From Deltaproteobacteria bacterium (GTDB taxonomy: Bacteria; Myxococcota_A; Polyangia; Haliangiales; Haliangiaceae): a stretch of 24,962 bases of DNA. Shown piece after piece: positions 967-24,226 of the stretch. The notes beneath the pieces are model-generated. The model had not been told where the DNA came from and did not search any database. It saw only the letters and a program-made list of their open reading frames with translations. Position 1 is the stretch's first letter, and each line of letters opens with the position of its first letter. The stretch lies in contig JAHCIV010000002.1 in NCBI GenBank assembly GCA_026129065.1, forward strand, positions 64,001 to 88,962. The letters are read 5' to 3'. Both the position numbers and the translations under genes were made by a program.

Positions 967-2102
<1,136 letters not shown>

Positions 2103-2106
<4 letters not shown>

Positions 2107-4013
2107 GCCCCGATCTCCAGCGGGGCACCGACGTGCTCGACGAGGTGCGGCTTCGCCTCGAGCGCGGCCGATCGCGGTGCGGTGCCCGCGTACTCGGGAA
2201 CGAGGGTGCGGAGGGACGCGCGGATCGCGTCGGGTGCGCCCTCGCAGTGCGCGAGGAGGTCCTCGATCCCTCGGGAGATCTCGGACCAGGTTCCGCGCGC
2301 GATGCGACCGATGAAGATCTTGGGGTGCTTGGTCTTGTCGGCGTGCTCGGCGCTCGTCGAGAGCTCCTCGAACAGCTTCTCGCCGGGCCGCACGCCGCTG
2401 AACTCGATCTCGATGTCCTCGTCGGGACGGAGCCCCGAGAGCCGGATCAGGTCGCGCGCGAGCTCGACGATCCGCACCGGTGCACCCATGTCGAGGATGA
2501 AGATCTCGCCGCCGTTCCCCATCGCGCCGGCCTGGAGCACCAGCTGGCTCGCCTCGGGGATCGTCATGAAGTAGCGCTGCATCTCGGGGTGCGTCACGGT
2601 GACCGGACCACCGCGGGCGATCTGCTCCTTGAAGATCGGGATGACCGAGCCGTTCGACCCGAGGACGTTTCCAAAGCGAACGGTGACCATGCGCGTGCGG
2701 CTGCGCTCGCCGAGCGCCTGCACGTACGTCTCGGCGACCCGCTTGGTGGCGCCCATGACCGACGTCGGGTTGACCGCCTTGTCGGTCGAGATCAACACGA
2801 ACCGCGAGACGCCGAAGCGGTCGGCGAGGTCGGCGAGCAGGCGGGTCCCGCCGATGTTGTTCTTCACCGCCTCGCCCGGGTTCGCCTCCATCATCGGCAC
2901 GTGCTTGTGCGCGGCCGCGTGCAGCACGATCGACGGCCGGTGGCGCGCGAACAGCGGCTCCATCCGTCTAGGATCCGTGACGTCCGCGATGCACGGCGTG
3001 ATCTCGAGCGCCGGGTAGTCCTTCGTCAGCTCGCGATCGATCTCGAACAGCGCGTTCTCGAACCGCTCGACCAGCACGAGCTGGCGCGGTCCGAACCGGC
3101 ACGCCTGCCGGCACAGCTCGCTGCCGATGCTGCCGCCGGCGCCCGTCACCATGACGACCTCGCCGCGGATCGAATCGTTGATGGTCTCCTCGTCGAGCCG
3201 CACCGGCTCGCGCCCGAGCAGGTCCTCGATCGCGACCTCGCGGATCCGCGACAGGTTCACGTGATCCCCGACGATCTCGTAGATTCCGGGGATGATCTTC
3301 GTGTCGAGCTGAGCCAGCTGACACGCGATGGTGATCCGCCGGATCTCGGCGCCCGGGGCGTTCGCGATCGTGATCAGCACCCGCGCGACGCGCTTGCGGT
3401 GCGCGACCTCCTGGAGCTGCGCGGTCGTCCCCAGCACGGGCGTACCCGCGACGAGAGTGCCGACCTTGTGGGGATCGTCATCGAGGAAGCCGACGACGTG
3501 GAGCCCGAGGTCCGGCCGGCGCGTGATCTCGCGTGCCACGAGCACACCCGCCTGCCCGGCGCCGATCAGCAGCACCCGCTTGCGGGAACGCTCCGCACCA
3601 CGCCGGTTGCGCTCGCGCACGTCGACGTACATCCGGCGCGAGGCGCGGACCGTGATCAGCCCGGCGGCGGCGAGCACGAAGTTGGAGCACACCACCCCGA
3701 GCGGCAGGAACGCGAAGTCGAGCACCTCGACGAACCTCGACACCAGGAGGACTGTGCTCGTGATCGTGATCGAGATCACGATCTGGAGCGCCTCGCGAAG
3801 GGAGACGAACCGCCACGAGTGCTTGGGGATCCCGAGGAGCGCGAGGGTGACGTACTCGAGGACGAGGACCGTGGGCCACGCGATCACGCACGCCCGCAGC
3901 CAGAAGGCTGGGATCGCGAACTCGAATCGGATCAAGAACGCGAGCCAGAGGGCGGCAGACAGCACCGCCAGGTCGACGACGACCTGGAGTGCTCGCGTGA
4001 TGTGCCGGGACAT
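2103..4013 (-). CDS. Membrane-anchored polysaccharide biosynthesis protein CapD/PglF/WbpM family (UDP-N-acetylglucosamine 4,6-dehydratase)
   Basis: The 636-aa ORF has N-terminal TM helices, then a Rossmann motif VMVTGAGGSIGSELCRQ and the SDR-type YxxxK region ...STDKAVNPTSVMGATKRVAE. The length and architecture match PglF/WbpM. Confidence 0.85.
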
Positions 4014-4093
4014 GCCGTACGCTTAGTGGGCAGCCGGGGACCGTGTGTTCACGACCGGACCCTATCACGAAGCCACGACGGCGTTCTCACGGG

Positions 4094-4117
4094 ATGATTC
4101 GCCGGAATCCGGACGAA
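4094..4117. promoter_or_regulatory. 24-bp near-perfect palindrome gattcgCCGGAatCCGGacgaatc in the intergenic region between the beta-helix gene stop (4136) and the PglF start (4013)
   Basis: Read directly: arms gattcgccgga / tccgg(a)cgaatc with a nested CCGGA-TCCGG palindrome, in a locally lower-GC stretch. It is either an operator for the pglF-aminotransferase operon or an intrinsic terminator hairpin for the upstream gene, and no U-tract follows it. Confidence 0.35.
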
Positions 4118-4135
4118 TCAGCCTCGTTCGTGTGC

Positions 4136-5629
4136 TCATCGCAAAGGCAGCGGCGCCACGGTGCGCTCGCGCACCTGGACGTCGCGACACGCGACCTTGC
4201 GGACGCCGTGCTGGTCGCCCGTGATCTGCTCGAACGCCACGGCGCGACCCGAGCACCGGATGCTCACGGGAACGAGGGGCGCGGTGTTGCCACGCACGTC
4301 GACGCGCTTGATCGCGTGATCGCGGTTACCGATGACCAGGATCGCGCTCGCCTCGCCGGCGATCTCGTTCTCGGCGACGGACACACCGGCGACGTCGCCG
4401 AGAACGGCGCTCACGTTGATGAGCGGCATCGCAGCATCGCCGCCGCGGTAGGCGAGGCGGTTCCGGCGGACCTCGACCGCGCTCGCCGAGGTGAGACGCA
4501 CGACCGCGGACGGCGTCGCCTGCTCGATCGTGTTGTCCACGATCGCGAGCTCGCGGGTCGTGCGACCGGCCAGGTGAGTCGCCGCGATCACCGGGCCGGG
4601 CGGAGCGGTGGCGGGGCGGTGAAGCGTGTTGCCCGCGATCCGGACCCCGGTCGTGCCGCGCATCAGCGAGATCGTCGGCGCGCGCGATCCGCGCGGGCCG
4701 TCGACGCGGTTGCGCAGCAGGTGGACGTCCGCCACGTCGAGCAGGCGGATCGAGCCGCCCGTGATCTTCGAGTCGGCGAGCACGACGCGGCGGGTGGTGA
4801 ACTTGCCGTTGCCGCCGATCGCGATCGCGTCGGGACCCTGCGCCTCCGGGTGGTGCTCGATGACGAGGCCGATCATGATGACGTCCTCGATCGAGCCCGA
4901 GCCCGTCGGCTCGAAGTCGATCGACTGGTCGCCGGTGCCGGTGATCACGTCGTGCGTGATCACGATGCGGCGCAGCCCGCGCTGGAGCGCGATCCCGGAC
5001 CGATCGCACGCGGTGAGCGTGGAGTTCGCGATCGTGACGTCGCTGACCTCCGCGCCGAGCCGGCCGAGCAGGCGGATGCAGTCGCCGCCGATCCCGGCTC
5101 CGACCTGCTGCTCGGGGCGGCGCATCGGCCCGAGCGTCATCCGGTTGATCGTGACGTCCGAGCTGCCGTGCACGACCTCGATCAGGTGGGTCTGCTCCTC
5201 GGTGTCGAACGCGCCGAGCCCGTCGATCGTGAAGTCGTGGAGGTACACGCCGCGCGCGCCGGTGATCTGGATCGCGCGCCAGTCCTCGCGTCGTCCCGAG
5301 CCGCTCATCCGGATCACGGTGCCGGGTCCGGCGCCCGCGATCTCGATGGGACCCGACCGGATCATCAGCGAGCCCCACTCCTGCCCTCGGCGCGGCGGCC
5401 GCTCGACCAGGAAGACGCCGCGACCGAGGCACACGCGCTTGTGCTCGGCGGTCGCGATGTCGATCGCGCGCTGGATCGCCGCGGTGTCCGGCTTGTCGTC
5501 GTCGGGGACCGCGCCGAGGTCCGCGGGATCGACGCAGGCCACCACGGGAGGGTCCGGCTTGTCGTCGTCGGTCACCACACCTCGCCTCGCGCAGGCGGCG
5601 ACGGCGACGAGCAGTGCGAGCCTCAGCAT
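4136..5629 (-). CDS. Secreted right-handed parallel beta-helix repeat lipoprotein (pectin-lyase fold; possible glycan hydrolase/lyase/epimerase)
   Basis: The 497-aa ORF has a signal peptide with lipobox MLRLALLVAVAAC. It contains repeated ~22-residue beta-helix coil signatures such as ...VTIANSTLTACDRSGIAL..., ...IVITHDVITGTGDQSIDF..., ...VHLLRNRVDG... and ...VRIAGNTL... The function was not resolved. Confidence 0.6.
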   Translation of the reverse strand: MLRLALLVAVAACARRGVVTDDDKPDPPVVACVDPADLGAVPDDDKPDTAAIQRAIDIATAEHKRVCLGRGVFLVERPPRRGQEWGSLMIRSGPIEIAGAGPGTVIRMSGSGRREDWRAIQITGARGVYLHDFTIDGLGAFDTEEQTHLIEVVHGSSDVTINRMTLGPMRRPEQQVGAGIGGDCIRLLGRLGAEVSDVTIANSTLTACDRSGIALQRGLRRIVITHDVITGTGDQSIDFEPTGSGSIEDVIMIGLVIEHHPEAQGPDAIAIGGNGKFTTRRVVLADSKITGGSIRLLDVADVHLLRNRVDGPRGSRAPTISLMRGTTGVRIAGNTLHRPATAPPGPVIAATHLAGRTTRELAIVDNTIEQATPSAVVRLTSASAVEVRRNRLAYRGGDAAMPLINVSAVLGDVAGVSVAENEIAGEASAILVIGNRDHAIKRVDVRGNTAPLVPVSIRCSGRAVAFEQITGDQHGVRKVACRDVQVRERTVAPLPLR

Positions 5630-5712
5630 GTCGGTTGGTGGATGCTGCCGCGATCCGGGTTCATCCGAACCTTATCACCCGTGGCGTAGGTGCAAAACGC
5701 AGCCCGGCGCCG

Positions 5713-6315
5713 TCACCGCGACCTGGCCGGCACGCCGACGACGGTGGCGCCGTCGTCGACGTCGCGCACCACCACGGCGCCGGCGCCGACGCGCGTCCAC
5801 GCCCCGATCCTCCGCCCGGGAACGACGACCGCGCCGATGCCCAGGAACGCGCCGGCGCCCACGGTCACGGTGCCGGCGAGGTGGCTGCCGGGGGCGAGGT
5901 GCGCGGCGTCGCCGATCACGCAGTCGTGATCGATCGAGCACGACGTGTTGACGATGACGCCCGCGCCGAGCCGCGCGTCGGGCTGGATCACAGCGCCGGC
6001 GAAGACGACGGTCCCCGGGCCGAGCGTCGCCGACGCGTCGACGCATGCGCGGGCGTGGACCAGCGTCGCCAGCTCGCACCGGGCGCGGCTCATCAGGCGA
6101 TGCCTCGTCGCGTTGTCGCCCACCGCGATCACGGCGAGCTCGTCCGCGCGGTCGAGGACCTCGTCGACGGCTCCGACGATCGGTGCGCCGCACAGCACCT
6201 CGCCTCGACGGGCCGGATCGTCGTCGTACACCGAGATCTGCGCGTAGCCGATCGAGCGCGCCGTGGCGATCACGACCTTCGCGTGGCCGCCGCCGCCCAG
6301 CACGCACAGCTTCAC
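5713..6315 (-). CDS. NeuD/PglD-family sugar N-/O-acetyltransferase (left-handed beta-helix, hexapeptide repeats)
   Basis: The 200-aa ORF has the N-terminal motif LCVLGGGGHAKVVIATAR typical of NeuD/PglB/PglD (TIGR03570-like). Its C-terminal half has hexapeptide repeats (...GAGVIVNTSCSIDHDCVIGDAAHLAPGSHLAGTVTVGAGAFLGIGAVVVPGRRIG...). Confidence 0.75.
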   Translation of the reverse strand: MKLCVLGGGGHAKVVIATARSIGYAQISVYDDDPARRGEVLCGAPIVGAVDEVLDRADELAVIAVGDNATRHRLMSRARCELATLVHARACVDASATLGPGTVVFAGAVIQPDARLGAGVIVNTSCSIDHDCVIGDAAHLAPGSHLAGTVTVGAGAFLGIGAVVVPGRRIGAWTRVGAGAVVVRDVDDGATVVGVPARSR

Positions 6316-6324
6316 GCGCGCACG

Positions 6325-7182
6325 CTAGATCTCGAGCTCTTCGCCCTCGCGCGCGGGGACGAGGCCGATGGCGGCGCCGCCGCGCGCGTCGAGGGTGGCG
6401 CGGCAGCTCGCGAGGAGCTCGTCGACGTCGGCGTCGCTGTAGTCCTGGTCGTAGTGGAACATGACCAGCTTGCCGACGCGGGCGGCGATCGCGGCGTCGG
6501 CGGCGTCCTCGTAGGAGGAGAAGCCGCGGTTGCGGCGCGTGGCCTGGTCCTCGGGGCGGTAGGTGGTGTCGTGGAGGAGGACGTCGGCGCCCTGGTAGAA
6601 GGCGATGGCGTCGGGGTGCGGTGGGGCGCCGGCGTCGGGCTGGCCGACGTCGGAGGCGTAGACGAACGTGCGGGTGCCGTCATCGATGCGGAAGGCGAGG
6701 GCGGTGGCGCTGCCGTGCGGGTGCTCGCGGCAGGTGACGCGCAGGCCCTCGGCGTCGAACGGCAGGCCGCAGCGCACGGCGCGCACGTCGAACGTGGCCG
6801 AGAAGTTCTTGAGCGTCTGCAGCGGCGAGAAGTTGGGATCCATCTGGCCCTCGAGGATGCCCTCGAGCACCTCGGGCGAGCCGCCGGGGCCCCAGACCGT
6901 GAACTGGTTGCCGGCGACGAACACGGGCGGGAAGAAGCCGAGGCCCTGGATGTGGTCCCAGTGGGTGTGCGAGAGCAGGATCGACGCGCGGCCCTGGCCC
7001 TTGCCGAACGCGCCGGTCATGAGGTGGTTGCCGAGGTGCATGAGCCCGGTGCCCATGTCGATCACGACGAGCCCGCCGGTTCGGGTCTCGACGGAGACGC
7101 ACGACGTGTTGCCGCCGTAGCGGATCGTGTCGGGCCCCGGCGCGGGGATCGAGCCGCGCACGCCCCAGAAGCGAATCTTCAC
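6325..7182 (-). CDS. MBL-fold metallo-hydrolase, paralog A (285 aa, GTG start)
   Basis: This is the C-terminal part of track ORF 6325..8136. The protein starts VKIRFWGVRGSIPAPG and carries the HxHxDH motif (LSHTHWDHIQG). The GTG start at 7180-7182 overlaps the stop of paralog B (7179-7181), a GTGA overlap. The upstream part of the 603-aa track ORF is Arg/Pro-rich junk antisense to paralog B. Confidence 0.65.
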   Translation of the reverse strand: MKIRFWGVRGSIPAPGPDTIRYGGNTSCVSVETRTGGLVVIDMGTGLMHLGNHLMTGAFGKGQGRASILLSHTHWDHIQGLGFFPPVFVAGNQFTVWGPGGSPEVLEGILEGQMDPNFSPLQTLKNFSATFDVRAVRCGLPFDAEGLRVTCREHPHGSATALAFRIDDGTRTFVYASDVGQPDAGAPPHPDAIAFYQGADVLLHDTTYRPEDQATRRNRGFSSYEDAADAAIAARVGKLVMFHYDQDYSDADVDELLASCRATLDARGGAAIGLVPAREGEELEI

Positions 7183-8111
7183 TGATCCCCCAGTGGGATC
7201 TCGAGTCCCTCGAAGGCGCTGTCGAGCGAGAACGGATCGCCCTGCGCCGCGACGACGCCGCGGTACTTCGCGAGGATCCTGTCGTTGTCGTCGTCGGAGC
7301 GCATCGGCGCGTGGTGGAACAGGCACAGGCGCTTCACACCCGCGTCGCGCGCGATCTGGATCGCGTCGTCGGGGTGCGAGTGGCCCCAGTGCGGGCGCAG
7401 CCGGTACTCCTCGTACGTGAACTGCGTGTCGTAGATCAGCAGGTCGGCGCCCTTCGCGAGCGCGACCACGCCCGCGCGCATGCGGTCGAGCTCGGCCGCG
7501 ACGTCGGGCGGCAGCGGCTGGTCGAGCGCCGGCGGCGTCGTCACGAACTCGCGCCCGAACAGGATGTCGGCGAACGGCGCGGTGTCGGCGCAGTAGACGA
7601 GCGACGCGCGATCGCAGTCGATGCGGTACGCCATCGCGACCCACGGGTGGTTGAGGCGCGTGCACGAGATGCGGATGCCGCCGGGCAGCTCGAACCGCGC
7701 ACCCTCGAGCAGCTCGCGGAAGCTCATGTCCGCCTGCATCGCGGACATCGGCACCGGGAAGTACGGCGAGTCGTGCTGCTGCGAGAACACGGCCTCGAGG
7801 TGGGTGTCGCGCTGGCGCGCGAAGATCTCGACCTTGTTTCCGGCGCGGTACAGGGGCGAGAAGAACGGGAGGCCCTGCACGTGATCCCAGTGCGTGTGGC
7901 TGATGAGGATCGTCGCCGAGCCGCGCCCGTCGCCGAACGCCTCCTCCATGAGCGACTTGCCCAGCCTCCGGAGCCCCGTGCCCGCGTCGATGATGATCGG
8001 CGAGCCGTTCCGGGGCCGCACCTCCACGCACGACGTGTTCCCGCCGTACCGGCTGGTCGCTCGCCCGGGTACCGGAATCGAGCCGCGGACTCCCCAGAAC
8101 CTGACCTTCAT
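7179..8111 (-). CDS. MBL-fold metallo-hydrolase, paralog B (alternative upstream ATG start at 8168)
   Basis: The protein MKVRFWGVRGSIPVPG...ISHTHWDHVQG... has the same N-terminal box and HxHxDH motif as paralog A. By analogy with paralog A, I prefer the internal Met at 8111 over the track start at 8168. Confidence 0.65.
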   Translation of the reverse strand: MKVRFWGVRGSIPVPGRATSRYGGNTSCVEVRPRNGSPIIIDAGTGLRRLGKSLMEEAFGDGRGSATILISHTHWDHVQGLPFFSPLYRAGNKVEIFARQRDTHLEAVFSQQHDSPYFPVPMSAMQADMSFRELLEGARFELPGGIRISCTRLNHPWVAMAYRIDCDRASLVYCADTAPFADILFGREFVTTPPALDQPLPPDVAAELDRMRAGVVALAKGADLLIYDTQFTYEEYRLRPHWGHSHPDDAIQIARDAGVKRLCLFHHAPMRSDDDNDRILAKYRGVVAAQGDPFSLDSAFEGLEIPLGDQ

Positions 8112-8193
8112 GAAACTCGCGTGAGCCGAACCGCACCGCCGACAGACCCCGGCGCGGCCAATCGGCACCCTAACGCCCGGAACACCCTCGCGG

Positions 8194-8661
8194 CTAGAAC
8201 CCCTTGCGCGAATCTAGAAGGATCGTCACGGGCCCATCGTTGACGAGCTCGACCGCCATATCCGCGGCGAACTCGCCGGCTTCGACGCGCACGACACCGG
8301 CGGCGCGCAACCCGGCGAGCGCCTGCTCGCACAGCATCTTGGCCGCGACCGGTTCGAGCGCGCCGGTGAACGCCGGTCGGCGCCCCTGACGCGCGTCGCC
8401 ATACAGCGTGAACTGCGACACGAGGAGCACGCCGCCGCCGACGTCGAGGACGCTGCGATTCATCTTGTTTGCGTCGTCGGCGAAGATCCGGAGGTTCGCG
8501 ATCTTGTCGACGATGTAGGCCAGGTCGGTCGCGGTGTCCCCGGCGCCCGCGCCGAGGAGGACCATGAGGCCGCGCTCGATGACGCCGGTCACGCGCTCGC
8601 CACCGTCCGCATCGCGCACGGTGACGCGTGCCCTCGTGACTCGCTGGACGACCGCGCGCAT
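8194..8661 (-). CDS. dtd: D-aminoacyl-tRNA deacylase
   Basis: MRAVVQRVTRARVTV...GLMVLLG...KIANLRIF...KMNRSVLDVGGGVLLVSQFTLYGD...GRRPAFTGA...NDGPVTILLD are canonical Dtd motifs (SQFTL, NDGPVT). I prefer the internal Met at 8661 over the track start at 8700. Confidence 0.85.
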   Translation of the reverse strand: MRAVVQRVTRARVTVRDADGGERVTGVIERGLMVLLGAGAGDTATDLAYIVDKIANLRIFADDANKMNRSVLDVGGGVLLVSQFTLYGDARQGRRPAFTGALEPVAAKMLCEQALAGLRAAGVVRVEAGEFAADMAVELVNDGPVTILLDSRKGF

Positions 8662-8729
8662 GCCCGTTCGATACCACGACTTTTCCGGGCAACCCCGCAC
8701 GCTTGCTGGTGGTCTGATCGACCGCTAGG

Positions 8730-9224
8730 ATGCCCGCGCGCATGAGACTCCTTCTTCTTCTCGCCGTGATCGCCGGTTGCGGCAGGGAGATCGGCGACAA
8801 GTGCATCATCAGCACCGACTGCGACCCGAACGGCACACGCCAGTGTGATTCGTCGGCGCACGAGGGTTACTGCACGATCCAGGGCTGCGACGTCGGCACG
8901 TGCCCCGACGAGGCCGTGTGCGTCCGGTTCTTCACCGGGAGCTTCGCGAACCGGCCGTGCGACCCCGCCACCGAGGACCGCCCGGGCGGCACGAACGAGT
9001 GCACCTTCGACGAGCTGTGCTCGCTCGCCGGCCACTGCGTGCCGCGCTCGAGCGAGATCCGCTTCTGCATGAAGATCTGCGAGTCCGCCAGCGACTGCCG
9101 CGACAAGTACGAGTGCCGCAACCTCGACCTCATGCGCGCGCACGGCGGCGAGCCGGTGCTCGAGCCGGGCACCATCATCGACGAGAAAGCCCCGAACTTC
9201 TGCGCCGCCGAAGGCACGCTCTGA
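8730..9224 (+). CDS. Cys-rich secreted lipoprotein, function unknown
   Basis: The signal peptide has lipobox MRLLLLLAVIAGC. The mature region of ~145 aa holds about 17 Cys in CxxxxC / C.DxxTC patterns and is probably disulfide-rich. It diverges from dtd across a 68-bp gap. Confidence 0.55.
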   Translation: MPARMRLLLLLAVIAGCGREIGDKCIISTDCDPNGTRQCDSSAHEGYCTIQGCDVGTCPDEAVCVRFFTGSFANRPCDPATEDRPGGTNECTFDELCSLAGHCVPRSSEIRFCMKICESASDCRDKYECRNLDLMRAHGGEPVLEPGTIIDEKAPNFCAAEGTL

Positions 9225-9264
9225 GCGCGCTCGTAACGTCGTAGCGACGGGGTAGGCTGCCCGC

Positions 9265-10215
9265 GTGGCGGTGGACGTCTCCTCGCTCGGCTCGTTCCTG
9301 CTCCGCAGGCTCGGCTCGGGTGCGCTCGCCGTCCTCGGCGTGTCGATCCTCGCCTTCTCGTTCCTGCACATCGTCCCCGGCGATCCCGTCGACCACCTCG
9401 CGGGCGGCGAGGCGACGCCGGCGCAGCGCGCGCAGATCGAGCAGTGCATGGGGCTCGATCGCTCGCTGCCGATGCAGTTCGTCCACTTCCTCGGCGACAT
9501 CGCCGACGGCTCGCTCGGGCACCAGTGCCCCGACCCCAAGGGCAAGCCGACGGTCGCCGCGCGCATCGCCGAGGTGTTCCCGCACACGGCCGAGCTCGCG
9601 CTCGCCGGCATGCTCGTCGCCGTGATCTTCGCGCTGCCGCTCGGCATCGTCGCGGCGATCCGGCGCGGCTCGTGGATCGACACGCTCGCGACGACGGCGT
9701 CGCTGTCGGGCATCGCGATCCCGCAGATGATGTTCGCGCCGATGCTCGTGTTCCTGTTCTTCGTCACGCTCGGCTGGTTCCCGGGCCCGACGGAGACGGG
9801 GCTCGCGGCGCTCGTCCTGCCGGCGTTCGCCGTCGGCACGCACCTGATGGCGATGCTGGCGCGCATGACGCGCTCGTCGATGGTCGAGGTCCTCGGCGAG
9901 GACTACGTGCGCACGGCGCGCGCGAAGGGGCTGCCCGAGCGGCAGGTGCTGCTCGTCCACGCGCTGCGCAACGCGCTCCTGCCGGTGATCACCGTCGCCG
10001 GCCTGCAGTTCGGGTCGCTGCTGTCGGGCGCGATCGTGATCGAGCGGGTGTTCTCGCGGCCGGGGCTCGGCACGACGCTGCTCGACGCGATCCTCGAGCG
10101 CAACTACCCCGTCGTGCAGGGCTGCGTGTTCGTGATCGCGCTCGTCTACATCACCATCAACGTGCTGGTCGACCTGGCGTACGGCCTCGTCGACCCGAGG
10201 ATCCGGCGCGCGTGA
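9265..10215 (+). CDS. ABC transporter permease, DppB/OppB family (oligo-/dipeptide or nickel type)
   Basis: The 316-aa ORF has an N-terminal ...[31 protein letters not shown]... signature of DppB-type permeases, 6 predicted TM segments and an EAA-like loop (...[10 protein letters not shown]...). Confidence 0.8.
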
Positions 10216-11042
10216 AGCTGTCGGTCAGCGCGAAGATCGGGATGGTCATGCTGGCCGTGTTCGTCGTGCTCGGCGTGTTCGGCCCGTGGCTCGCCCCGTA
10301 CGACGTCGGGACGCGCGGGATCGACCTGGCGCACCGCTTCGAGGGCTCGTCGGGCGCGCACCTTTTCGGCACCGACTCGACCGGGCGCGACACGCTCTCG
10401 CAGCTCCTGTTCGGCGCGCGCTCGGCGCTGCAGATCAGCCTCATCGTCGTCGCGATCTCGGCGGCGGTCGGCCTCACGCTCGGCGCCGTCGCCGGCTGGT
10501 TCGGCGGCGCCGTCGACGAGGTCGTGATGCGCGTCGTCGACGTGCTGATGGCGTTCCCGGGCATCCTGCTCAACATCGCGATCGTGGCGACCGTCGCCGA
10601 GCCGGGCCTCGGCATCATGATCGCGGCGCTGTGCGCGAACGGCTGGGTCGGCTACGCCCGCGTCGCGCGCGGCCAGGTGCTCGCGCTGCGCGAGCGCGAC
10701 TACGTGAAGGCCGCGATCGCGCTCGGCGCCGGCGATGCGCGCGTGATCGGCCGGCACCTCGTCCCGAACCTGATGGCGCCGGCGCTCGTGCAGATGACGT
10801 TCGGCTTCGGCGGCGTGATCCTCGTCGAGGCGTCGCTGTCGTTCCTCGGCCTCGGCCCGCAGGTCGACTACACCTGGGGGGCGATGCTCGACCAGGCGCG
10901 CACGTTCCTGTGGAAGTCGGAGTGGGTGAAGCTCTACACGCTCGTGCCCGGCCTCGCGATCCTGTGGGTCGTGCTCGCGGCGAACCTGCTCGGCGACGGC
11001 CTGCGCGACTGGCTCGATCCGCGCCAGCGAGGGCGGGGGTAG
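10212..11042 (+). CDS. ABC transporter permease, DppC/OppC family
   Basis: The real gene is the C-terminal part of track ORF 9444..11042, which is in the same frame: [31 protein letters not shown]...GTDSTGRD...[17 protein letters not shown]..., all typical DppC features. The GTG start overlaps the DppB stop (GTGA at 10212-10215). Alternative ATG starts lie at about 10242 and 10248. Confidence 0.75.
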
Positions 11043-11046
11043 ACCG

Positions 11047-11361
11047 ATGCCCCTGCGCGTGCGCGTGTGCACCATCGCCGACGTCGCCGCCGGCGAGCTG
11101 CGCGCGTTCCCGGTGCACGGCGTGACGTGGCCGGTGATCGTGACGATCGTCGACGGCGCGTTCGTCGCCGTCCCCGGCGTGTGCCCGCACGAGGACGTCG
11201 CCCTGTGGGAGGGCGACCTCGACGGGGGCGAGATCGTGTGCCCCGGCCACGGCTGGGGCTTCGACGTCCGCACCGGGCGCTGCAAGAGCGCACCCGGCCT
11301 CGAGCTGCGCCGCTACGCGATCACGCTCGTCGGCGACGAGATCTGGGTCGATCTCCTCTGA
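11047..11361 (+). CDS. Small Rieske [2Fe-2S] ferredoxin-like protein
   Basis: The 104-aa ORF has the two Rieske boxes CPHED (CxH) and CPGHGW (CxxH) about 19 residues apart. It starts 5 nt after the DppC stop and is probably co-transcribed. Confidence 0.7.
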   Translation: MPLRVRVCTIADVAAGELRAFPVHGVTWPVIVTIVDGAFVAVPGVCPHEDVALWEGDLDGGEIVCPGHGWGFDVRTGRCKSAPGLELRRYAITLVGDEIWVDLL

Positions 11362-11380
11362 GATCGCTTCCGACGTCGCG

Positions 11381-14134
11381 TTACTTGTACTCGGGCTCGA
11401 CGATCTTGACGTCCTTGATGCCGGCGTCGGCGAACGTCTTGTCGAGGTGCGCCTTGTCGCCGAGGACGACGATGACCTCGTTGTTCGGGTTGAGCTCCGT
11501 CGCGATCATCGCCCGCAGCTGCGCCGGCGACACGGCCGCGACCTGCTGGAGCAGCGTGTTGAAGTAGTTCGGCGGGAGGTTGTACGTCGAGATGAAGCCG
11601 AGGCGCTGCGCGAGCTCCGCGGTCACCGTCGACTCGCCGAGCAGCGTCGACAGGATCTTGCGGCGCGCGCGCACGAAGTCCTTCTCGAAGGTGTCGCCCT
11701 TGCGCAGCATCTCCACGCCCTCGCGGATCGCCTTCAGCGACTCGCCGCCGCGCTCGGCGTCGACGGTGCCGCCGATCGCGTAGGCCGCGGGGCCCTTGCG
11801 CGCGCGGCGACCGGCGTACACGCCGTACGTCGAGCCGAGCTTGAAGCGGACGTCGCCGACGCGGATGTTCATCATCTCCGCGAGCACCTGGCGCGCGCCC
11901 TCCTGGCCGTCGACGCCGGCGGGCGCGGGGTAGGCGATCCGGATCTCGAGCTGCGGCTCCTCCTTGCCGACGACGCCGACGAACGACGGCCCGGAGCGCT
12001 TGGGCGCGGTCGGATCGACGGGGCTCGCGACGGAGCCCTTGCCCCAGTCGCGGAACGTCGACTTCACGAGCTTCTCGGCGTACTTCGTGTCGAAGTCACC
12101 GGTGATGATCAGCGTCGCGTTCCCCGCCGTGTAGTGCGACTTGCGGAACGCGTCGAGCGTGTCCTTGTCGACCTTGTTGACCGCGTCGGCGGTGAGGACG
12201 CCGCTCTTCGTGTAGGGGTGATCGGGGCCGTACAGCGTCAGCAGGATCTGGCGCTCGAACTCGACCTGCTGTTGCGACTGCTTCGTCGCGAGCCGCCCCT
12301 TCACGATCTTCTGCCAGGACTCGATGCCGTCCTGGTTGTAGGTGCCCGCGTGGACCAGGCGCTCGAGCCCCTTCACCATGACCTCGAGGTAGATGTTGAT
12401 CCCGCTCGACTCGCACACGGTCGCGTCGCCGGCCGCCTCGCAATCGACGCTGATCCCCGTCTTGTCGAACGCGTCGGCGAACGGCATCTGGAGGAAGCGC
12501 GCCGCGGCGTCGGGCACCGCGCGGCTCGACGGGTAGCTCGCCGTGCCCGCGTTGTCGAACACGAGGCGCGTCGCGACGAGCGGCATCGACTTGAACGGCA
12601 AGAGGACGACCTTCATCCCGTTACCGAGCTCGAACCTCGACGCGCCGGACAGGCCCTTCAGCTCGGCGGCGAGCTTGATCGGCCGGCGCGCCTCCTCGGG
12701 GTTGATGTCCTCGACCTGCTTCTCCTCGTGCGACTTCGCGTCGAACTTGACGCGCGTGTTGCGCGTGTCGCCCTTCACGCCCTCCTTGTTCGGCTTGATG
12801 ACGATGATCCGCGCCTTGTCATAGTCGAGGTACTTCTTCACGACCGCGCCGACCTTCGCCGCGTCGAACTTGCCGATCTTGTCGAGCTCGTGGAACAGGT
12901 ACAGGTCCTGCGAGTCGAAGTTGAAGTCCTTCGAGAACTGCACGCGGTCCGCCACCTCGATCGTGCGCGCCGCGAGCTGCTCCATGCTCTGGATGAACGA
13001 GGCCTTGCGCTGGTTCCTCCACAGCTCCATGATCTCTTCGTTCGCCTCGTCGAACCCGCGGTACGCCTGCTTGATGGCCTTCTGCGTGAACTCGAGCGCG
13101 TCGTCGAGCTTGCCCATCCCCTTCAGCTCGATCGAGATCGCCGCGACCGGCGCGAGCTCGCCGCCGAGGATCGTGGGCGACACCGAGTACGCGAAGCCGT
13201 ACTCCTGACCCTTGCGCGCGATCTGCGAGAACATCCGGCCGAGGCCGAACCGGACCAGCTCGCCGTCGGGCGTGTTGTTCGGGGGGAGCGCGAACGCGAC
13301 GTGGACGCTCGCGCGCTCGACGTCGAGCTCGAACTGCTGCTTGCCCCGCGCGACGGCGAGCTGCTGCACGGGGACGCGCGGCGCGCCGGGGGCCTTCTTG
13401 AGCTTGCCGAACCACTTCTTGATCGCGTCCAGCGTCTTGTCGACGTCGATGCCGCCGGCGATGACGACGGTGGCGCGCTCGGGGACGTAGTAGTCCTTCA
13501 TGAACTTGCAGGCGTCCTCGAGCGTGATGCTCGTCAGCTGCTTGTCGTCGCCGCCGATCATGCGCTCGTAGGCGTGGCCGTGCGGGTAGATCGACGACAG
13601 GATCAGCTGCGGGATCTGGCCCTCGGCGGTGCCCGTGCGCTGGCGGATCTCGTTGCGGACGACCTCGCGCTCCCGGAGGAACTCCTCGTTGGAGATCGTC
13701 TGGCAGCCGTAGAACATCCGCATCGTCTCGATCTTGAGCATCGCGTCGAGGTTCTCGGCGCGCGCGGTGTTCATGTAGTGGGTCGTGTCCCAGTTCGTGT
13801 ACGCGTTGAAGAACGTCGTGAGCTCGTTGATGCTCTGCATGAGCGGCGCGGACTGCGCGCCGTCGGGCCGGAGCTGGAACATCAGGTGCTCGACGACGTG
13901 GGCCAGGCCCGCCTTGCCCGGCGGGTCCTCGCGCGACCCGACGTCGTAGCGGATGTCGACCTCGACGAGCTGCGTGCTCGAGTCCGGCATGAGCACGAAC
14001 TTGAGGCCGTTGGACTCGAGCTTGCCGCGGCGCTCGGCGTGGGTGAACGCGAACTTCGGCGCCTTCGGTTCGCAGGCGGGTAGCGCGCCGGCGGCGAGGG
14101 ACGCGGCGACCAGGAGGCCCCAGGGCTTGGACAT
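11381..14134 (-). CDS. Secreted tandem-unit M16 (pitrilysin/insulinase) family zinc peptidase
   Basis: The inverted zinc motif HVVEHLMF (HxxEH) lies near the N-terminus, and the ~900-aa length fits two M16 units. The probable start is the internal Met at 14134, giving MSKPWGLLVAASLAAGALPAC as a signal peptide. The track start at 14185 is the alternative. Confidence 0.8.
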   Translation of the reverse strand: MSKPWGLLVAASLAAGALPACEPKAPKFAFTHAERRGKLESNGLKFVLMPDSSTQLVEVDIRYDVGSREDPPGKAGLAHVVEHLMFQLRPDGAQSAPLMQSINELTTFFNAYTNWDTTHYMNTARAENLDAMLKIETMRMFYGCQTISNEEFLREREVVRNEIRQRTGTAEGQIPQLILSSIYPHGHAYERMIGGDDKQLTSITLEDACKFMKDYYVPERATVVIAGGIDVDKTLDAIKKWFGKLKKAPGAPRVPVQQLAVARGKQQFELDVERASVHVAFALPPNNTPDGELVRFGLGRMFSQIARKGQEYGFAYSVSPTILGGELAPVAAISIELKGMGKLDDALEFTQKAIKQAYRGFDEANEEIMELWRNQRKASFIQSMEQLAARTIEVADRVQFSKDFNFDSQDLYLFHELDKIGKFDAAKVGAVVKKYLDYDKARIIVIKPNKEGVKGDTRNTRVKFDAKSHEEKQVEDINPEEARRPIKLAAELKGLSGASRFELGNGMKVVLLPFKSMPLVATRLVFDNAGTASYPSSRAVPDAAARFLQMPFADAFDKTGISVDCEAAGDATVCESSGINIYLEVMVKGLERLVHAGTYNQDGIESWQKIVKGRLATKQSQQQVEFERQILLTLYGPDHPYTKSGVLTADAVNKVDKDTLDAFRKSHYTAGNATLIITGDFDTKYAEKLVKSTFRDWGKGSVASPVDPTAPKRSGPSFVGVVGKEEPQLEIRIAYPAPAGVDGQEGARQVLAEMMNIRVGDVRFKLGSTYGVYAGRRARKGPAAYAIGGTVDAERGGESLKAIREGVEMLRKGDTFEKDFVRARRKILSTLLGESTVTAELAQRLGFISTYNLPPNYFNTLLQQVAAVSPAQLRAMIATELNPNNEVIVVLGDKAHLDKTFADAGIKDVKIVEPEYK

Positions 14135-14138
14135 GGAG

Positions 14139-14158
14139 CGGGATCTTTTCCAATCCCG
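14139..14158. promoter_or_regulatory. Hairpin cgggat-cttttcca-atcccg immediately 5' of the proposed M16 peptidase start codon (14134)
   Basis: Read directly: 6-bp perfect inverted repeat with an 8-nt loop, inside the divergent M16/POT intergenic region. It would overlap the ribosome-binding region of the 14134 start. Confidence 0.3.
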
Positions 14159-14268
14159 TCCCGTTTGCAAGCCACTCCTACTCACCTTCCCGAGGCGCCG
14201 CGTGGGGGGCTGCGACCGCGGGCGCGTCGCACCCCTAAACGGTTTTCACCTCGAGAGTCTTCGCGCTA

Positions 14269-15888
14269 GTGTCCGCGGCGATGACAAGCGACCCCGACCG
14301 CGCCTTCTTCGGACATCCGAAGGGGCTCGCCACCCTCTTCTTCACGGAGATGTGGGAGCGCTTCTCCTACTACGGGATGCGCGCGTTCCTGATCTTCTAC
14401 CTCGCCGCCCCGGAAGACCTCGGCGGCAAGGGCATGTTCGTCCTCAACAAGGCGGGCGAGCAGGAGCCGTCGGGTGCGGCCGGCGCGATCGTCGGCGTGT
14501 TCGGCGCCTCCGTCTACCTGCTGTCGCTGCCGGGTGGCTGGATCGCCGACCGCTTCATCGGCCAGCGCAAGGGCGTCATGATCGGCGGCTTCGGCATCGC
14601 GGCCGGCAACGCGCTCCTCGCGATCCCCGGCACCGGCGATCTGTTCTACGTGGGCCTCGTGTTGATCGCGCTCGGCACCGGGTTCCTGAAGCCGAACGTG
14701 TCGACGATCGTCGGCCAGCTCTACCGCCCCGACGACCTGCGCCGGGACGCCGGTTACACGATCTACTACATGGGCATCAACATCGGCGCGACGGCCGCGC
14801 CGATCGCGTGCGGCATCCTCGCCCAGGACCCTCAGTTCCGGGCGTTCCTCGCCGACTCGGGCATCAACCCGAACTACTGCTGGAACTTCGCGTTCGGCGC
14901 GGCGGCGGTCGGCATGGTCGGCGGCCTCATCTCGTACTCGGCCGGCCAGCGCGCGCTCGGCGACGCGGGACTGCACCCGACGATCCCCGACGATCCGGTC
15001 CGCGCCGAGCGCGACCGCAACATCCTCAAGGTCATCATCGGCGCGCTCGTCGCGCTCGCGGTGATCGTCGCCGCGACGGCGCCGTCGAAGAAGACCATCA
15101 CCGACGCGATGGGCGTCGGCCTCGGCCTCGGCTCGATCGCGCTGTTCTACGGCCTCTACCGGTCGGCGCGGGATGCGAGCGAGCGCCGGCGCATCATCGC
15201 GATGGTGCCGCTGTTCGTCGGCGCGATCGGCTTCTTCGGCATCTTCGAGCAGTCGCCGACGACGCTCAACATCTACGCGGAGAGCCACACCGAGCGCGAG
15301 TTCCTCGGGCTCAACATCCCGGCGAGCTTCTACCAGAGCGTCAACGGCTTCTTCATCGTCGCGCTCGCGCCGCTGTTCGCGTGGATCTGGGTCAAGCTCG
15401 CGCGCGCGAGGAAGGAGCCGACGAGCGTCAACAAGTTCGCGATCGGCATGGCGATCCTCGCGCTGTCGTTCGTGGTGATGCTGCCGTCGCTGGCGTCGAT
15501 CGACGCCGGCCAGCGCGTCTCGCCGATGTACCTGATCATGCTGTACTTGCTCTACACCTGCGCCGAGCTGTGCATCTCGCCGGTGGGCCTGTCGTCGATG
15601 TCCAAGCTCGCGCCGCAGCGGCTCGCCGGCATGGTGATGGGCACGTGGTTCCTGGGCACGTCGATCGGCATCTACCTGGCCGGCCGCGCGAGCGAGATCT
15701 CCGAGGTGCGCGGGTTCCGGTTCCTGTTCGTGTTCCTGATCGTGTGCTCGCTCGTGATGTCGGCCGCGCTGTTCCTGGTCGCGCCGATGATCCGCAGGAT
15801 GATGGGCAAGGAAGCGACGGCGACCTCCGAGCCGGCCGAGTTGCCGGTCGCGATCGCGAAGGAGATCCCGAAGGACAAGAAGAACTAG
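14269..15888 (+). CDS. POT/PTR2-family proton-dependent di-/tripeptide transporter (DtpT-like)
   Basis: The N-terminal motif FGHPKGLATLFFTEMWERFSYYGMRAFLIFYL is the PTR2 signature, and there are about 14 predicted TM segments. It diverges from the M16 peptidase. Confidence 0.85.
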   Translation: MSAAMTSDPDRAFFGHPKGLATLFFTEMWERFSYYGMRAFLIFYLAAPEDLGGKGMFVLNKAGEQEPSGAAGAIVGVFGASVYLLSLPGGWIADRFIGQRKGVMIGGFGIAAGNALLAIPGTGDLFYVGLVLIALGTGFLKPNVSTIVGQLYRPDDLRRDAGYTIYYMGINIGATAAPIACGILAQDPQFRAFLADSGINPNYCWNFAFGAAAVGMVGGLISYSAGQRALGDAGLHPTIPDDPVRAERDRNILKVIIGALVALAVIVAATAPSKKTITDAMGVGLGLGSIALFYGLYRSARDASERRRIIAMVPLFVGAIGFFGIFEQSPTTLNIYAESHTEREFLGLNIPASFYQSVNGFFIVALAPLFAWIWVKLARARKEPTSVNKFAIGMAILALSFVVMLPSLASIDAGQRVSPMYLIMLYLLYTCAELCISPVGLSSMSKLAPQRLAGMVMGTWFLGTSIGIYLAGRASEISEVRGFRFLFVFLIVCSLVMSAALFLVAPMIRRMMGKEATATSEPAELPVAIAKEIPKDKKN

Positions 15889-15897
15889 CTCGGCCGG

Positions 15898-17544
15898 CTA
15901 GCGCGTCGGCCACGCGCCCCAGTACGCGCGGGCCTCGGGTGGGACGCGGGCGAGGGCCCAGTCCCACACCGGCTCGGTGACGAGGACGAGGCCGTTCGGG
16001 TGGCGCGGATGGGCGCCGAGGGGCGGCGGCAGCGGCGCCGCGCGCGCGTCGAGCAGGGCCTCGTCGAGGGGCGAGCCGGCCTCGATCCACGCGAGCGGCA
16101 GGATGCGCACGCGCGACGCGGCCGGGACGTCGTCGGGGCGGATGCGGATCGGCGCGCGCGTGTACCACGCGACCATGAACGCGATGTGGCGCTCGGGGAC
16201 GATCGCCGTCGCGCCGGCCGGGATGCGCGGGCCGAGCGCGAGCACGCTCGTCACGAGCGCCGGGTGCACGACCACCTCGCCCTCGACGAGGCCCTGCTCG
16301 ACGCGGCCCTGCTCGACGCGGATCGGCCCGCCGCGGCGCGCGACGGCCTGCGTGCCGCGGTCGAGGAGGCCGAACGCGAGGAGCGCGAGCAGGAGCTCGC
16401 GGTGCGGGACGCGCGCGAGGGCGCGGCCGGCGAACATCGCCGCGCACAGCGCCATCGGGACGTACGCGGCGACGCGCAGGCGGAAGCCCAGGCCCTGCGC
16501 GTCGTCGACGGCGAGCCACGGCAGCCCGATGGCGAGCGCGAGGACGACGGCCGCCCACTCGATCGGCGCGCTCGTTTACGTTTGCTGCCCCGGCGCGGGT
16601 CGCGCGCGATCGCGAAGTCTGCGACGGCGGTGAGCGAGGGCGCGTTGCGCAAAAGGCGCCGCATGGGCGCACGAAGGTAACGGCGATCGCGAGGAGGGCG
16701 AGCACGGCGCCGATCACGCCTCGTGCCCCATCGCGAGCGTCGCGCGGTCGCTCGCGATGCCGGCGCGGTCCAGCGCGCGTCCGTGGTGAACGGCGCCGGC
16801 GACGAGGTCGACGTCGGCGGGCGATGGAAAGCGCTGTGGGAACAGCAGGCCGAGGACGAGCGCGACGGCGGCGAGCGCGGCGAGGTGGCGGCGGCGAACG
16901 CCATGCGCCGGAGTGGTCGAGGGCCCCGCGCGCGCGGGCCTCGGCGAGCGCGGCGAGCGCGGCCGCGACGACGATCGCCGCGGCCATCTTGCGAGCCCCG
17001 CCGCCAGCTTGTGGGTCGCGAGCGCGGCGGCCAGCCCGAGCGCGGCGGCGGCGACACGTCCGCGATCCGGACGCTCGAGCGCACGCAGCAGCAGCCACAC
17101 CGCGGTCAGCGCGACGGTCAGGCCGATGCTGTTCTTGACGAACTCGAGCGTCGCGTACATCGACCCGGCGCTCACCGTCGCGAGCGCGGCCGCGACCAGC
17201 CCCGCGCCGCGCCCGCCGCCGAGGCGCGCGCCGACGCCGTACGCCGGCACCGCGATCAGCGCGCCCCAGAACGCGGCGCCGAGCTTGGCGCCCACGATCG
17301 GATCCGTCGCGAGCGCGAACGGCGCCATCAGCCAGAACGCGAGCGGCGACGCCGGGTACGCGAGCGCGCCGCCGTCGAGCAGCGAGCGCAGCTGGATCGC
17401 GTAGAAGTAGCCGTCGATGCCGACGGGGTACGGCGTCGCGTCGAGCACCGCCCAGCGCTGGTGGAACGACCACCCCACGAGCAGCGCGAGCAGCGCGGCG
17501 ACGGCGGCGTGCGGGAGCTCCCGCCGGTAGGGTCCGTCGCTCAC
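15898..17544 (-). pseudogene. Probable disrupted gene for a polytopic membrane protein (GT-C/PMT-like architecture). It is split by an in-frame TGA and probable frameshift(s) into an N-terminal membrane part (16714..17544) and a C-terminal part (15898..~16560).
   Basis: ORF 16714..17544 encodes a multi-TM N-terminus (…AVLDATPYPVGIDGYFYAIQLRSLLDGG…). ORF 15898..16455 is in the same frame (coordinates congruent mod 3), and its frame is open and hydrophobic upstream to a TAA near 16563 (…APIEWAAVVLALAIGLPWLAVDDAQGLGFRLRVAAYVPMALCAAMFAG…). Between 16563 and 16716 the frame is broken by TGA at 16714-16716 and TAA, and a TM-like stretch appears in another frame. A lower-GC patch at 16560-16690 coincides with the break. 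Alternatively these are two separate genes, or sequencing errors. Confidence 0.4.
16291..16320. repeat. Perfect 2 x 15-bp tandem duplication (gccctgctcgacgcg)2, preceded by a degenerate third copy at 16279-16290
   Basis: Read directly. On the minus strand it encodes the duplicated pentapeptide RVEQG-RVEQG within the C-terminal fragment of the disrupted membrane-protein gene. Confidence 0.85.
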
Positions 17545-17568
17545 CCGCGGAACATAGACCGCGACGCG

Positions 17569-18135
17569 TCAGTCCGCGACGGCGGTGGCGCCGGCGCCGG
17601 ATCCGGACGCCGAGGCGACGCGCACCATGCACGTGCTCATCTGCTGGCCGAGGTCGGTGATCAGCTGCATCTCCTCGGCGGTCGGCTGGGGCGCCGGGTT
17701 GCGGGCTCCCTCCTTCGCCATCGCGGCCGCGTCCTTCGCGTAGGCCTCCATCACGCGCGTGGTGCAGTCCGTCGACGAGCACGCGCACAGCCTGTCGGCG
17801 GCCGCGCGCATCTTGTCGACCCAGCACGAGGTGCCGTCGCAGTCGCCGACCTCGATCTCGGGGAACAGCCGGGGCGCGCACTTCGCGGCGGCGTTCTTCG
17901 ACGTCGCCTCGTCGAGGCACTCCGCCTCGTCGAGGCCGATGCCCGCGTCCTTGCACATGGCCCGGTACTTCTCGACGGCGGGGGCGCGCGCCTCGGGCTC
18001 GGCGTAGTTGCCGAGCTCCCACGAGGTCATCTGCTCGGCGATCGGATCGCAGTCCGCCGGGATCTTGCCGACCGCGCGCGTCAACGCGTAGGCGGCGGTG
18101 ACGGCCACGAAGAACAAGAGGGCGATCTTCATCAT
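17569..18135 (-). CDS. Cys-rich secreted protein, function unknown
   Basis: The true start is the internal MMKIALLFFVAVTAAYALTRA signal peptide inside track ORF 17569..18759. The upstream part of that track ORF is antisense to queC. The ~165-aa mature protein has 11 Cys. Confidence 0.55.
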   Translation of the reverse strand: MMKIALLFFVAVTAAYALTRAVGKIPADCDPIAEQMTSWELGNYAEPEARAPAVEKYRAMCKDAGIGLDEAECLDEATSKNAAAKCAPRLFPEIEVGDCDGTSCWVDKMRAAADRLCACSSTDCTTRVMEAYAKDAAAMAKEGARNPAPQPTAEEMQLITDLGQQMSTCMVRVASASGSGAGATAVAD

Positions 18136-18195
18136 CGTCCCGGCTAGGACGCGCGAGCGGGCCGGCTTCTTGGGGCCGCGTGCTAACTTGCCGCC

Positions 18196-24218: not shown

Positions 24219-24226
24219 ATCCCTTT

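Follow-up and report, generated by a model that had tools for sequence, protein, structure and literature searches.

The stretch of DNA analysed here (the window; 24,962 nt, contig JAHCIV010000002.1 of the Deltaproteobacteria bacterium assembly GCA_026129065.1, positions 64,001 to 88,962) carries at positions 8742-11361, on the + strand, a set of four genes that encode a Cys-rich lipoprotein, a DppB-type permease (PermB), a DppC-type permease (PermC) and a Rieske protein. The GC content of the window is about 70%, and real genes were chosen among its open reading frames (ORFs) by the GC content of third codon positions (GC3) and named using Pfam and NCBIfam. All four ORFs of the set lie on the + strand and have a coding-type GC3 of 0.93-0.99. 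Dpp/Opp-type peptide importers are textbook five-gene systems. The features of the unit in the window are the following.

8686..8744, + strand: conserved element in the 80-nt intergenic region between the divergent genes for D-Tyr-tRNA deacylase (Dtd) and the lipoprotein, from an alignment of 46 loci
8742..9224 (ATG 8742, 160 aa) or 8730..9224 (ATG 8730, 164 aa), + strand: Cys-rich lipoprotein with a signal peptide and a lipobox, without family match
9265..10215, + strand: DppB-type permease PermB; BPD_transp_1 PF00528 (E 1.4e-40, 139.5 bits) and BPD_transp_1_N PF19300 (45.2 bits)
10212..11042, + strand: DppC-type permease PermC; BPD_transp_1 PF00528 (E 2.2e-27, 96.4 bits) and OppC_N PF12911 (26.5 bits)
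11047..11361, + strand: Rieske [2Fe-2S] ferredoxin-type protein, 104 aa; PF00355 (57.2 bits, cut-off 20.3)

This arrangement had been proposed in an earlier sequence-only reading of the window, and all four ORFs, their domains and the overlap of the permease genes are present in the sequence. Chance does not account for this gene order, which is found again in about 65 genomes. The layout is real and extends across the clade; what is unusual about it is the conserved translational coupling, as predicted from the gene junctions, to a Rieske ferredoxin.

Distribution and gene junctions of the four-gene unit

An alignment scan with the Rieske protein across 185,579 species genomes returned 128 relatives, the best 80 of which were taken for the locus analysis. 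These 80 come from metagenome-assembled genomes (MAGs) labelled Kofleriaceae, Haliangiales, Myxococcales/Myxococcota or, more broadly, Delta-/Proteobacteria. The 80 loci (about 1.2 Mb; cited below by L number) were searched with the window proteins by tblastn and their Rieske sequences were clustered, which gave an orthologue group of 69 sequences (motif CPHEDV, 104 aa) and a paralogue group of 12 sequences (CPHDDVSLVDYG, 105 aa). Among the orthologue loci with at least 3 kb of upstream sequence (n=54), both permB and permC are present in 52, the lipoprotein gene lies on the same strand in 50 and a divergent upstream Dtd gene is found in 51. On the downstream side, an M16 peptidase gene and a POT symporter gene are each found in 40 of the 46 orthologue loci that have at least 7 kb of sequence there. 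Three long contigs seeded with permB (L086, L087 and L088) all carry the same four genes with the 4-nt and 1-nt overlaps, and the four-gene module is whole both in L088, from which the M16 gene is absent, and in L086, where it is displaced. The conserved unit is the four-gene module plus a divergent block of two metallo-beta-lactamase (MBL) fold genes and the Dtd gene, which is the most constant neighbour block of the operon.

The closest relative of the window is L005 (MAG ACE_MYX2, GCA_019637375.1), with 98.9% nucleotide identity over window positions 6324-21379, and the window therefore belongs to a sister strain of L005. In a homologue search with permB, the matches listed were all members of the clade, with at least 79% identity, and no outgroup operon, with or without ATPases, was among them.

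The permB stop codon and the permC GTG start codon overlap in the sequence GTGA at 10212-10215, as the sequence-only reading had noted, and the 4-nt overlap is also called in L003, L004, L087 and L088. The annotators of the 98.9%-identical sister genome chose an alternative permC start, the ATG at 10242; the GTG start gives a positively charged N-terminus ahead of the first transmembrane helix. A spacer of 4 nt separates the permC TAG from the Rieske ATG in the window. The Rieske start lies between -4 and +4 nt from the permC stop in 60 of 64 genomes, 37 of these 60 junctions being 1-nt overlaps of the TGATG/TAATG type, and the tightness of the junction is kept while Rieske identity drops to about 60%. 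At the other end of the unit the lipoprotein stop is typically about 13-40 nt from the permB start, and 50 of the 64 stretches extracted from the lipoprotein stop to the anchor are shorter than 130 nt.

The sole strongly conserved non-coding element of the unit is the one upstream of the lipoprotein gene. Its consensus in the 46-locus alignment is C.GGCAACCC......CTTGC....GGTC.AA.C.GCCGCTAGGATGC.C.CGCTCATG, with GGCAACC at 8688-8694 and CTTGC at 8702-8706 in the window, where there is also a promoter-like pair of TTGCTG (8703-8708) and TAGGAT (8726-8731) separated by 17 nt. Because the first lipoprotein ATG (8730) sits within the conserved nucleotide motif CTAGGATGC, the second ATG, at 8742, appears the more likely start. 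The element is probably the operon promoter, of a plausible but weak sigma-70 type, although a strict sigma-70 scan did not call it as one; the putative promoter would start the mRNA a few nt before ATG 8742, giving a near-leaderless mRNA. Taken as a motif of ~60 nt at 8686-8744, the region contains GCAA..TTGC half-sites and the TAGGAT box overlapping the first lipoprotein ATG, and it implies either a near-leaderless lipoprotein mRNA or an AGGA Shine-Dalgarno sequence 11 nt ahead of ATG 8742. A sigma-54 promoter for the GGCAAC..TTGC motif was rejected, as the GG-to-GC spacing is 5 nt too long, and an inverted-repeat scan of the upstream region gave just short, weak pairs.

Rfam and terminator scans of the four-gene unit found no Rfam family and no terminator-like site inside it. 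In L041, L057 and L065, which have no lipoprotein gene at this position, a TTGACA-like hexamer is present just upstream of permB. The claim that the Rieske gene is coupled to the permeases stands up well: an overlap or a spacer of no more than 4 nt is kept in the 60 genomes given above, and the sigma-70 scan found no site of its own ahead of the Rieske gene. This gene order and these junctions strongly indicate that the four genes are transcribed together and that permC and the Rieske gene are translationally coupled.

The permease pair and its missing partners

Relative to the window, permB and permC have median identities of 76% and 72%, compared with 79% for Dtd, 80% for QueC, 59% for the POT symporter, 59% for the lipoprotein and 56% for the M16 peptidase. 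Judged by this conservation, the permeases are under strong constraint and functional. The idea that they are decaying relics was rejected, since their conservation equals that of housekeeping genes.

Both permeases have PF00528, with PF19300 in PermB and PF12911 in PermC, all above their cut-offs, as expected of PepT-family transmembrane domains (TMDs). The resemblance to E. coli DppABCDF and the PepT family in general (TC 3.A.1.5; Dpp/Opp/Nik/Gsi) extends to a heterodimeric DppB/DppC-type TMD pair of the same Pfam architecture, encoded by adjacent, overlapping genes (PMC12136057). The EAA coupling loops of PermB and PermC are nearly identical to those of E. coli DppB and DppC and invariant across the orthologues (58 permB, 63 permC), with the pattern RDYV.A...GAG kept in the permC loop. 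PermB likewise keeps the DppB scoop region (PGDP..AGGEA..), as shown by aligning 58 orthologues with E. coli DppB. In E. coli, DppB and DppC dock DppD and DppF via the EAA loops, and the scoop docks into DppA, in whose absence DppBCDF is inactive (PMC12136057). By analogy, the simplest reading is that PermB and PermC would still depend on an ATPase dimer and an extracytoplasmic receptor.

PermB differs from E. coli DppB in that it has no counterpart of a periplasmic insert of roughly 33 residues and has two clade-specific periplasmic Cys residues. These residues, C61 (9445-9447) and C88 (9526-9528), both lie in the scoop region, are invariant in 59/59 sequences and have no equivalent in E. coli DppB; a periplasmic disulfide between them, peculiar to the clade, is probable.

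Family models give the permeases no substrate class, because no NCBIfam equivalog cut-off was reached. The scores were 300 against a cut-off of 350 for Opp2B, 275 against 463 for GsiC, 253 against 350 for Opp4C and 237 against 358 for NikC, and neither DppB, Opp1C nor any other of the tested equivalogs (DppB/C, NikB/C, GsiC/D, Opp1-4, CntC and DdpC) scored at its curated cut-off.

Pfam scans of the called ORFs of the window detected no ABC_tran and no SBP_bac_5 (family-5) domain, and tblastn of the 25-kb window with E. coli DppA, DppD and DppF gave nothing. In about 65 genomes, no DppD/DppF-type nucleotide-binding domain (NBD; ABC_tran plus oligo_HPY) and no DppA-like substrate-binding protein (SBP) is encoded within 10 kb on either side. 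The only ATP-binding cassette (ABC) ATPases found by tblastn over the 80 loci were two generic ones (L030 and L062), at 22-27% identity and several kb off; a further match of the ATPase search was a UvrA-like protein in L088. The orphan status of the permease pair, as first suspected from the window, is therefore upheld in the window and its relatives. Unlike E. coli Dpp, the operon and its 10-kb flanks have no equivalent of dppA, dppD or dppF, and the unit has two extra genes, the Cys-rich lipoprotein gene first and the Rieske ferredoxin gene last.

The missing genes could instead be linked after all, just past the ends of the window, which lie 8.7 kb ahead of the operon and 13.6 kb beyond it. 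The right end cuts a CobT-like (DBI_PRT) gene, and in L002 the counterpart of that gene is preceded, on the same strand, by type II importer genes that encode a FecCD permease and an ABC ATPase. That ATPase, however, belongs to a type II (FecCD/BtuCD-like) system and not to a Dpp-type one, and the empty 10-kb flanks were seen in genomes where synteny breaks at different points. We consider linkage beyond the window ends extremely improbable.

The proposal that the missing components act in trans is favoured, though not proven, and it is the best reading because the permeases keep their coupling loops and scoop; the NBD and the SBP would then both be supplied from elsewhere in the genome. Orphan ABC components are common. 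Importers with shared ATPases offer a precedent for TMD genes that stand without an NBD gene and with an unlinked ATPase, as with MsmK, MsiK and MsmX for CUT1 systems and FhuC for Isd heme uptake; the case of MsmK comes from Streptococcus suis (PMC4519317) and that of FhuC and Isd from S. aureus (PMC10147376). They differ from the present unit in belonging to other ABC families and in having operons that retain the SBP gene; the present unit lacks that gene as well, and its sharing of an ATPase is presumed.

The Rieske protein and the lipoprotein

The 104-aa Rieske protein has the domain and the CxH...CxxH ligand set of Rieske ferredoxins. The cluster ligands C46-P-H48 and C65-P-G-H68 (CPH..CPGH) are invariant in 36 homologues, as are C8, C79, the motifs GVTWPV and LRRY, and a C-terminal DLL. 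No signal peptide or Tat motif could be read from the sequence, so the protein is predicted to be cytoplasmic. There are 608 homologues; the best 120 show 69-98% identity, almost all of them have a length of 104 aa, and their sources are MAGs of Kofleriaceae or other Myxococcota. The subfamily is a narrow one, with no more than 4 representative clusters among 1.84 billion proteins that match at E<1e-30. Longer proteins that match the Rieske profile are tandem Rieske, NIR_SIR-Rieske, protoglobin-Rieske and DUF2231-Rieske proteins.

When solved structures were searched with a profile, full-length matches were obtained to TodB, T4moC, BphF and CarAc (E about 1e-14 to 1e-9), and the structural matches are ferredoxin components of toluene, biphenyl, naphthalene and carbazole oxygenases. 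The window protein resembles these ferredoxins in its length (about 105 aa), its single domain and its CxH..CxxH ligands. It differs from them in the extra invariant Cys8 and Cys79 and in the GVTWPV, LRRY and DLL motifs, and its gene is coupled to an ABC permease gene, with no oxygenase or reductase gene nearby: the 10-kb surroundings in the window, L001-L003 and L086-L088 contain none for a terminal oxygenase or a reductase. The HcaC, AndAb and MocE equivalogs score below cut-off for the protein. NirD, the small subunit of assimilatory nitrite reductase (Rieske_2), shares the small Rieske-like fold and weak sequence similarity; the window protein scores below the cut-offs of the NirD models (TIGR02378, 25.3 bits against 74.65; PF13806, 26 against 27), keeps its cluster ligands fully, and has no nirB or other NIR_SIR gene nearby.

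The paralogous Rieske sequence (105 aa) occurs in L044, L045, L063, L067, L071, L072, L073, L078, L079, L081 and L084. A conserved pair of genes for proteins of ~213 aa and ~1090 aa, which may be alternative complex III subunits, is found some 2 kb away from it in L044, L045 and L071. In L068 a paralogue-type Rieske sequence is located behind permC.

The lipoprotein has a lipobox, MRLLLLLAVIAG-C17 (..VIAGC), whose Cys17 is invariant and preceded by G or A in 39 homologues, and lipidation is predicted at C17. It contains 17 Cys residues, the lipobox Cys and 16 others, all of them invariant and enough for 8 disulfides. The protein is therefore predicted, from its sequence, to be extracytoplasmic and disulfide-rich, with a mature part of about 145 aa. 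All of its 783 homologues are annotated as hypothetical and have no Pfam domain, and the lipoprotein itself has no Pfam or NCBIfam match. An AlphaFold model is confident and mostly beta (pLDDT 84.8, pTM 0.76); a Foldseek search with this model found no PDB match (best E-value 1.5), and a profile search of PDB sequences found nothing. With no SBP Pfam domain and no two-lobed alpha/beta fold in the model, the lipoprotein is, by size, predicted domain content and modelled fold, not a classical binding protein.

The sequence-only reading had raised the possibility that the lipoprotein is a non-canonical receptor, which would replace the family-5 SBP and dock on the PermB scoop, so that only the ATPases act in trans. 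Part of this stands: the gene is tightly linked to permB in most genomes, occupies the first position in the operon, the usual place of dppA or oppA, and carries the sole conserved promoter-like element, there is no SBP gene nearby, and the clade-invariant Cys pair of the PermB scoop suggests a clade-specific docking surface. The protein itself fits poorly, being a small, mostly beta, disulfide-rich lipoprotein with no SBP domain or fold detected, while to our knowledge all receptors of type I importers are two-lobed alpha/beta proteins. Moreover, the gene is displaced or absent in L041, L057 and L065, where permB, permC and the Rieske gene persist together behind their own promoter-like TTGACA, and it stays beside the Rieske gene in L030, from which the permeases are gone; both findings argue against an obligatory role. 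A receptor function is in our view distinctly unlikely. In L041 (one Haliangiales MAG) the lipoprotein gene has been relocated 3 kb away on the other strand.

Neighbourhood, possible function and meaning of the unit

The genes that flank the operon in the window are the following.

6325..8661, - strand: two tandem MBL-fold (Lactamase_B_2) paralogues and the Dtd gene (8194-8661), assigned by Pfam and divergent from the operon
11381..14185, - strand: M16 (pitrilysin-like) peptidase, 934 aa, secreted, outside the operon; PF00675 and PF05193
14269..15888, + strand: POT/PTR2 di-/tripeptide:H+ symporter; PF00854 (E 5.6e-65) and TIGR00924 (383 bits, above cut-off)

The Rieske and M16 genes are convergent, with their stops 19 nt apart, and genes for QueC and an M18 aminopeptidase lie beyond the POT symporter gene on the downstream side. 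The conserved neighbours outside the divergent MBL/Dtd block have to do with peptides (M16, POT and M18). A pyrroloquinoline quinone (PQQ) cluster or one for a ribosomally synthesised and post-translationally modified peptide (RiPP), as MBL plus M16 might suggest, was rejected, there being no PqqC, PqqE or radical-SAM gene.

The two MBL paralogues (6325-8168, - strand) are about 35-38% identical to each other and both start (M)K[VI]RFWGVRGSIP; precomputed Pfam data give weak Anti-Pycsar_Apyc1 matches. The window and L005 diverge exactly at the stop of the distal MBL gene (window 1-6324 against L005 1-5278): the window has genes for a beta-helix protein, a PglD-like acetyltransferase, a PglF-like dehydratase and a DegT aminotransferase, and L005 has Poly_export and Wzy_C genes, which looks like a strain-level swap of a surface-polysaccharide island. 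On the downstream side, GC reaches 0.74-0.78 at 15500-17600, over a gene for a hypothetical protein of 185 aa and a PMT_2 glycosyltransferase-like gene; the sister genome has here one PMT_2 protein of 542 aa and a protein of 188 aa, and the ORF calls of the window may be fragmented. A 384-aa protein encoded at 20221-21375 (+ strand) has an N-terminal MshEN-type motif for binding cyclic di-GMP (NF053729, 38.2 bits) and no recognisable output domain. Look-ups of the exact sequences of this protein and of the Rieske protein of the window gave no recorded match. Three ORFs at 22388-24372 (129, 306 and 205 aa) have no Pfam match, and GC falls to 0.68 past position 23000. Among the other loci, L041 has a gene for a Fur-family regulator (10315-10740, - strand) convergent with and directly after the Rieske gene, and L030 (one Kofleriaceae MAG) has an AAA_14/DUF4143 ATPase gene downstream of its lipoprotein-Rieske pair.

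The reading that we favour, to which we give about an even chance (roughly 0.5), is that the unit codes for the membrane core of a PepT-family importer. In this reading the NBDs and SBP are recruited in trans, the importer probably takes up peptides, and a Rieske accessory is made together with it. The lipoprotein, permB, permC and Rieske genes would form a single transcription unit for the core of a Dpp/Opp-type type I ABC importer, with ATP-binding subunits, and most likely also a periplasmic binding protein, that are encoded elsewhere and join the PermB/PermC heterodimer in trans. Such a transporter would most likely import small peptides or a related PepT-family substrate, as suggested by its conserved neighbours (a secreted M16 protease, a POT symporter and an M18 aminopeptidase), which fit the scavenging of peptides. 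The lipoprotein may be a clade-specific extracytoplasmic accessory. The Rieske ferredoxin, made alongside PermC by translational coupling, could serve as a cytoplasmic redox-linked accessory and, as the most specific guess, may exchange electrons with, or sense redox for, the C-terminal [4Fe-4S] domains of Dpp/Opp-type ATPases. E. coli DppD and DppF each have a C-terminal [4Fe-4S] cluster, as does OppD (PMC12136057). These clusters are the only bridge between a ferredoxin and such a transporter that we can name, and the bridge is speculative.

Several points weigh against this reading. The trans-encoded NBD and SBP are presumed, the searches having covered the window and the related loci. The documented shared ATPases serve systems for sugars (CUT1) or iron, each with an SBP gene of its own, and we know of no shared NBD documented for the PepT family. 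The peptide substrate is suggested by the neighbourhood and by no other line of evidence, and any physical interaction or shared function of the Rieske protein and the transporter is likewise supposed. No permease-Rieske fusion was found among the best 150 cluster representatives of the 1.84 billion proteins, and the paralogous Rieske genes present in several of the same genomes occur in unrelated, variable contexts with no consistent partner. L030 (9458-10315) has the lipoprotein gene and, after 30 nt, the Rieske orthologue, with both permease genes absent; L076 has a Rieske gene without the module; and in L034 an insertion of 3.5 kb splits permC from the Rieske gene. The Rieske gene can thus persist without adjacent permeases. 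Finally, adjacency is weak functional evidence because the whole neighbourhood, including Dtd and QueC, is syntenic within one family.

Much of this would also suit a Rieske gene that is a passenger, encoding a general ferredoxin for an unlinked oxygenase, reductase or nitrite/sulfite reductase, with its tight packing a result of genome compaction and inherited synteny. Its nearest solved relatives are oxygenase electron carriers (TodB, T4moC, BphF and CarAc), its paralogue stands alone, L030 and L076 keep the gene without the permeases, a fusion is missing among the representatives searched, and the entire region is syntenic, unrelated genes included. Against a passenger, the close junction is kept in the 60 of 64 species-level genomes although Rieske identity falls so far, the module is whole where downstream synteny is broken (L086 and L088), neither an oxygenase nor a ferredoxin reductase gene lies within 10 kb in the inspected loci, and the subfamily is confined to the clade that has the module (among the best 80 relatives and the few clusters at E<1e-30). 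We regard a passenger gene as possible but rather unlikely. Further towards function, and unlikely, is a Rieske protein that is a dedicated partner of the importer, stoichiometric with PermC, through which peptide import would be gated by redox or Fe-S state via the [4Fe-4S] clusters of the ATPases, and in which case the lipoprotein may be a receptor of a new type.

The cargo of the importer core could also be a metal chelate (nickel, an opine-type metallophore, heme or a ferric complex), the sequence-only reading having suggested a metal or metallophore, with the Rieske protein reducing the cargo or helping to release it in the cytoplasm. FhuF-type [2Fe-2S] siderophore reductases are a model for reductive cargo release, and a redox protein in an importer operon would fit such a mechanism; the best sub-threshold NCBIfam models include the nickel-type Opp2B, Opp1C and NikBC, and the Fur-family regulator follows the Rieske gene in L041. 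The suggestion nevertheless fares badly. No nickel (Nik, Opp1/2), staphylopine (Cnt) or other equivalog reaches its cut-off, peptide and glutathione models score equally, and neither genes for metallophore biosynthesis or a TonB receptor nor a metal riboswitch were found in the window. The Fur neighbour was seen in one genome and is the only hint, and the conserved neighbours besides the MBL/Dtd block point to peptides. A metal chelate is quite improbable as the substrate.

Literature searches found no paper on a Rieske gene coupled to Dpp/Opp permeases and nothing relevant on peptide transporters of the Kofleriaceae. A 2025 cryo-EM study found that the Dpp ATPases carry [4Fe-4S] clusters, for which the only role we found reported is structural stabilisation (PMC12136057). 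In the unit described here, a whole bacterial family, the Kofleriaceae among the soil myxobacteria, has parted the membrane core of a PepT-family importer from its ATPases and SBP and has joined a Rieske gene to that core. If the Rieske protein is only a passenger, the unit comes down to an operon layout peculiar to the clade, of use in the annotation of Kofleriaceae MAGs. With a functional link, the family would offer a natural experiment on how PepT-family transporters recruit unlinked subunits and on redox signalling by Fe-S domains. Should the Rieske protein in fact gate import, a type I ABC importer would for the first time be known to have a redox-protein subunit, and this would open a way to explain the presence of Fe-S clusters in Dpp/Opp ATPases.

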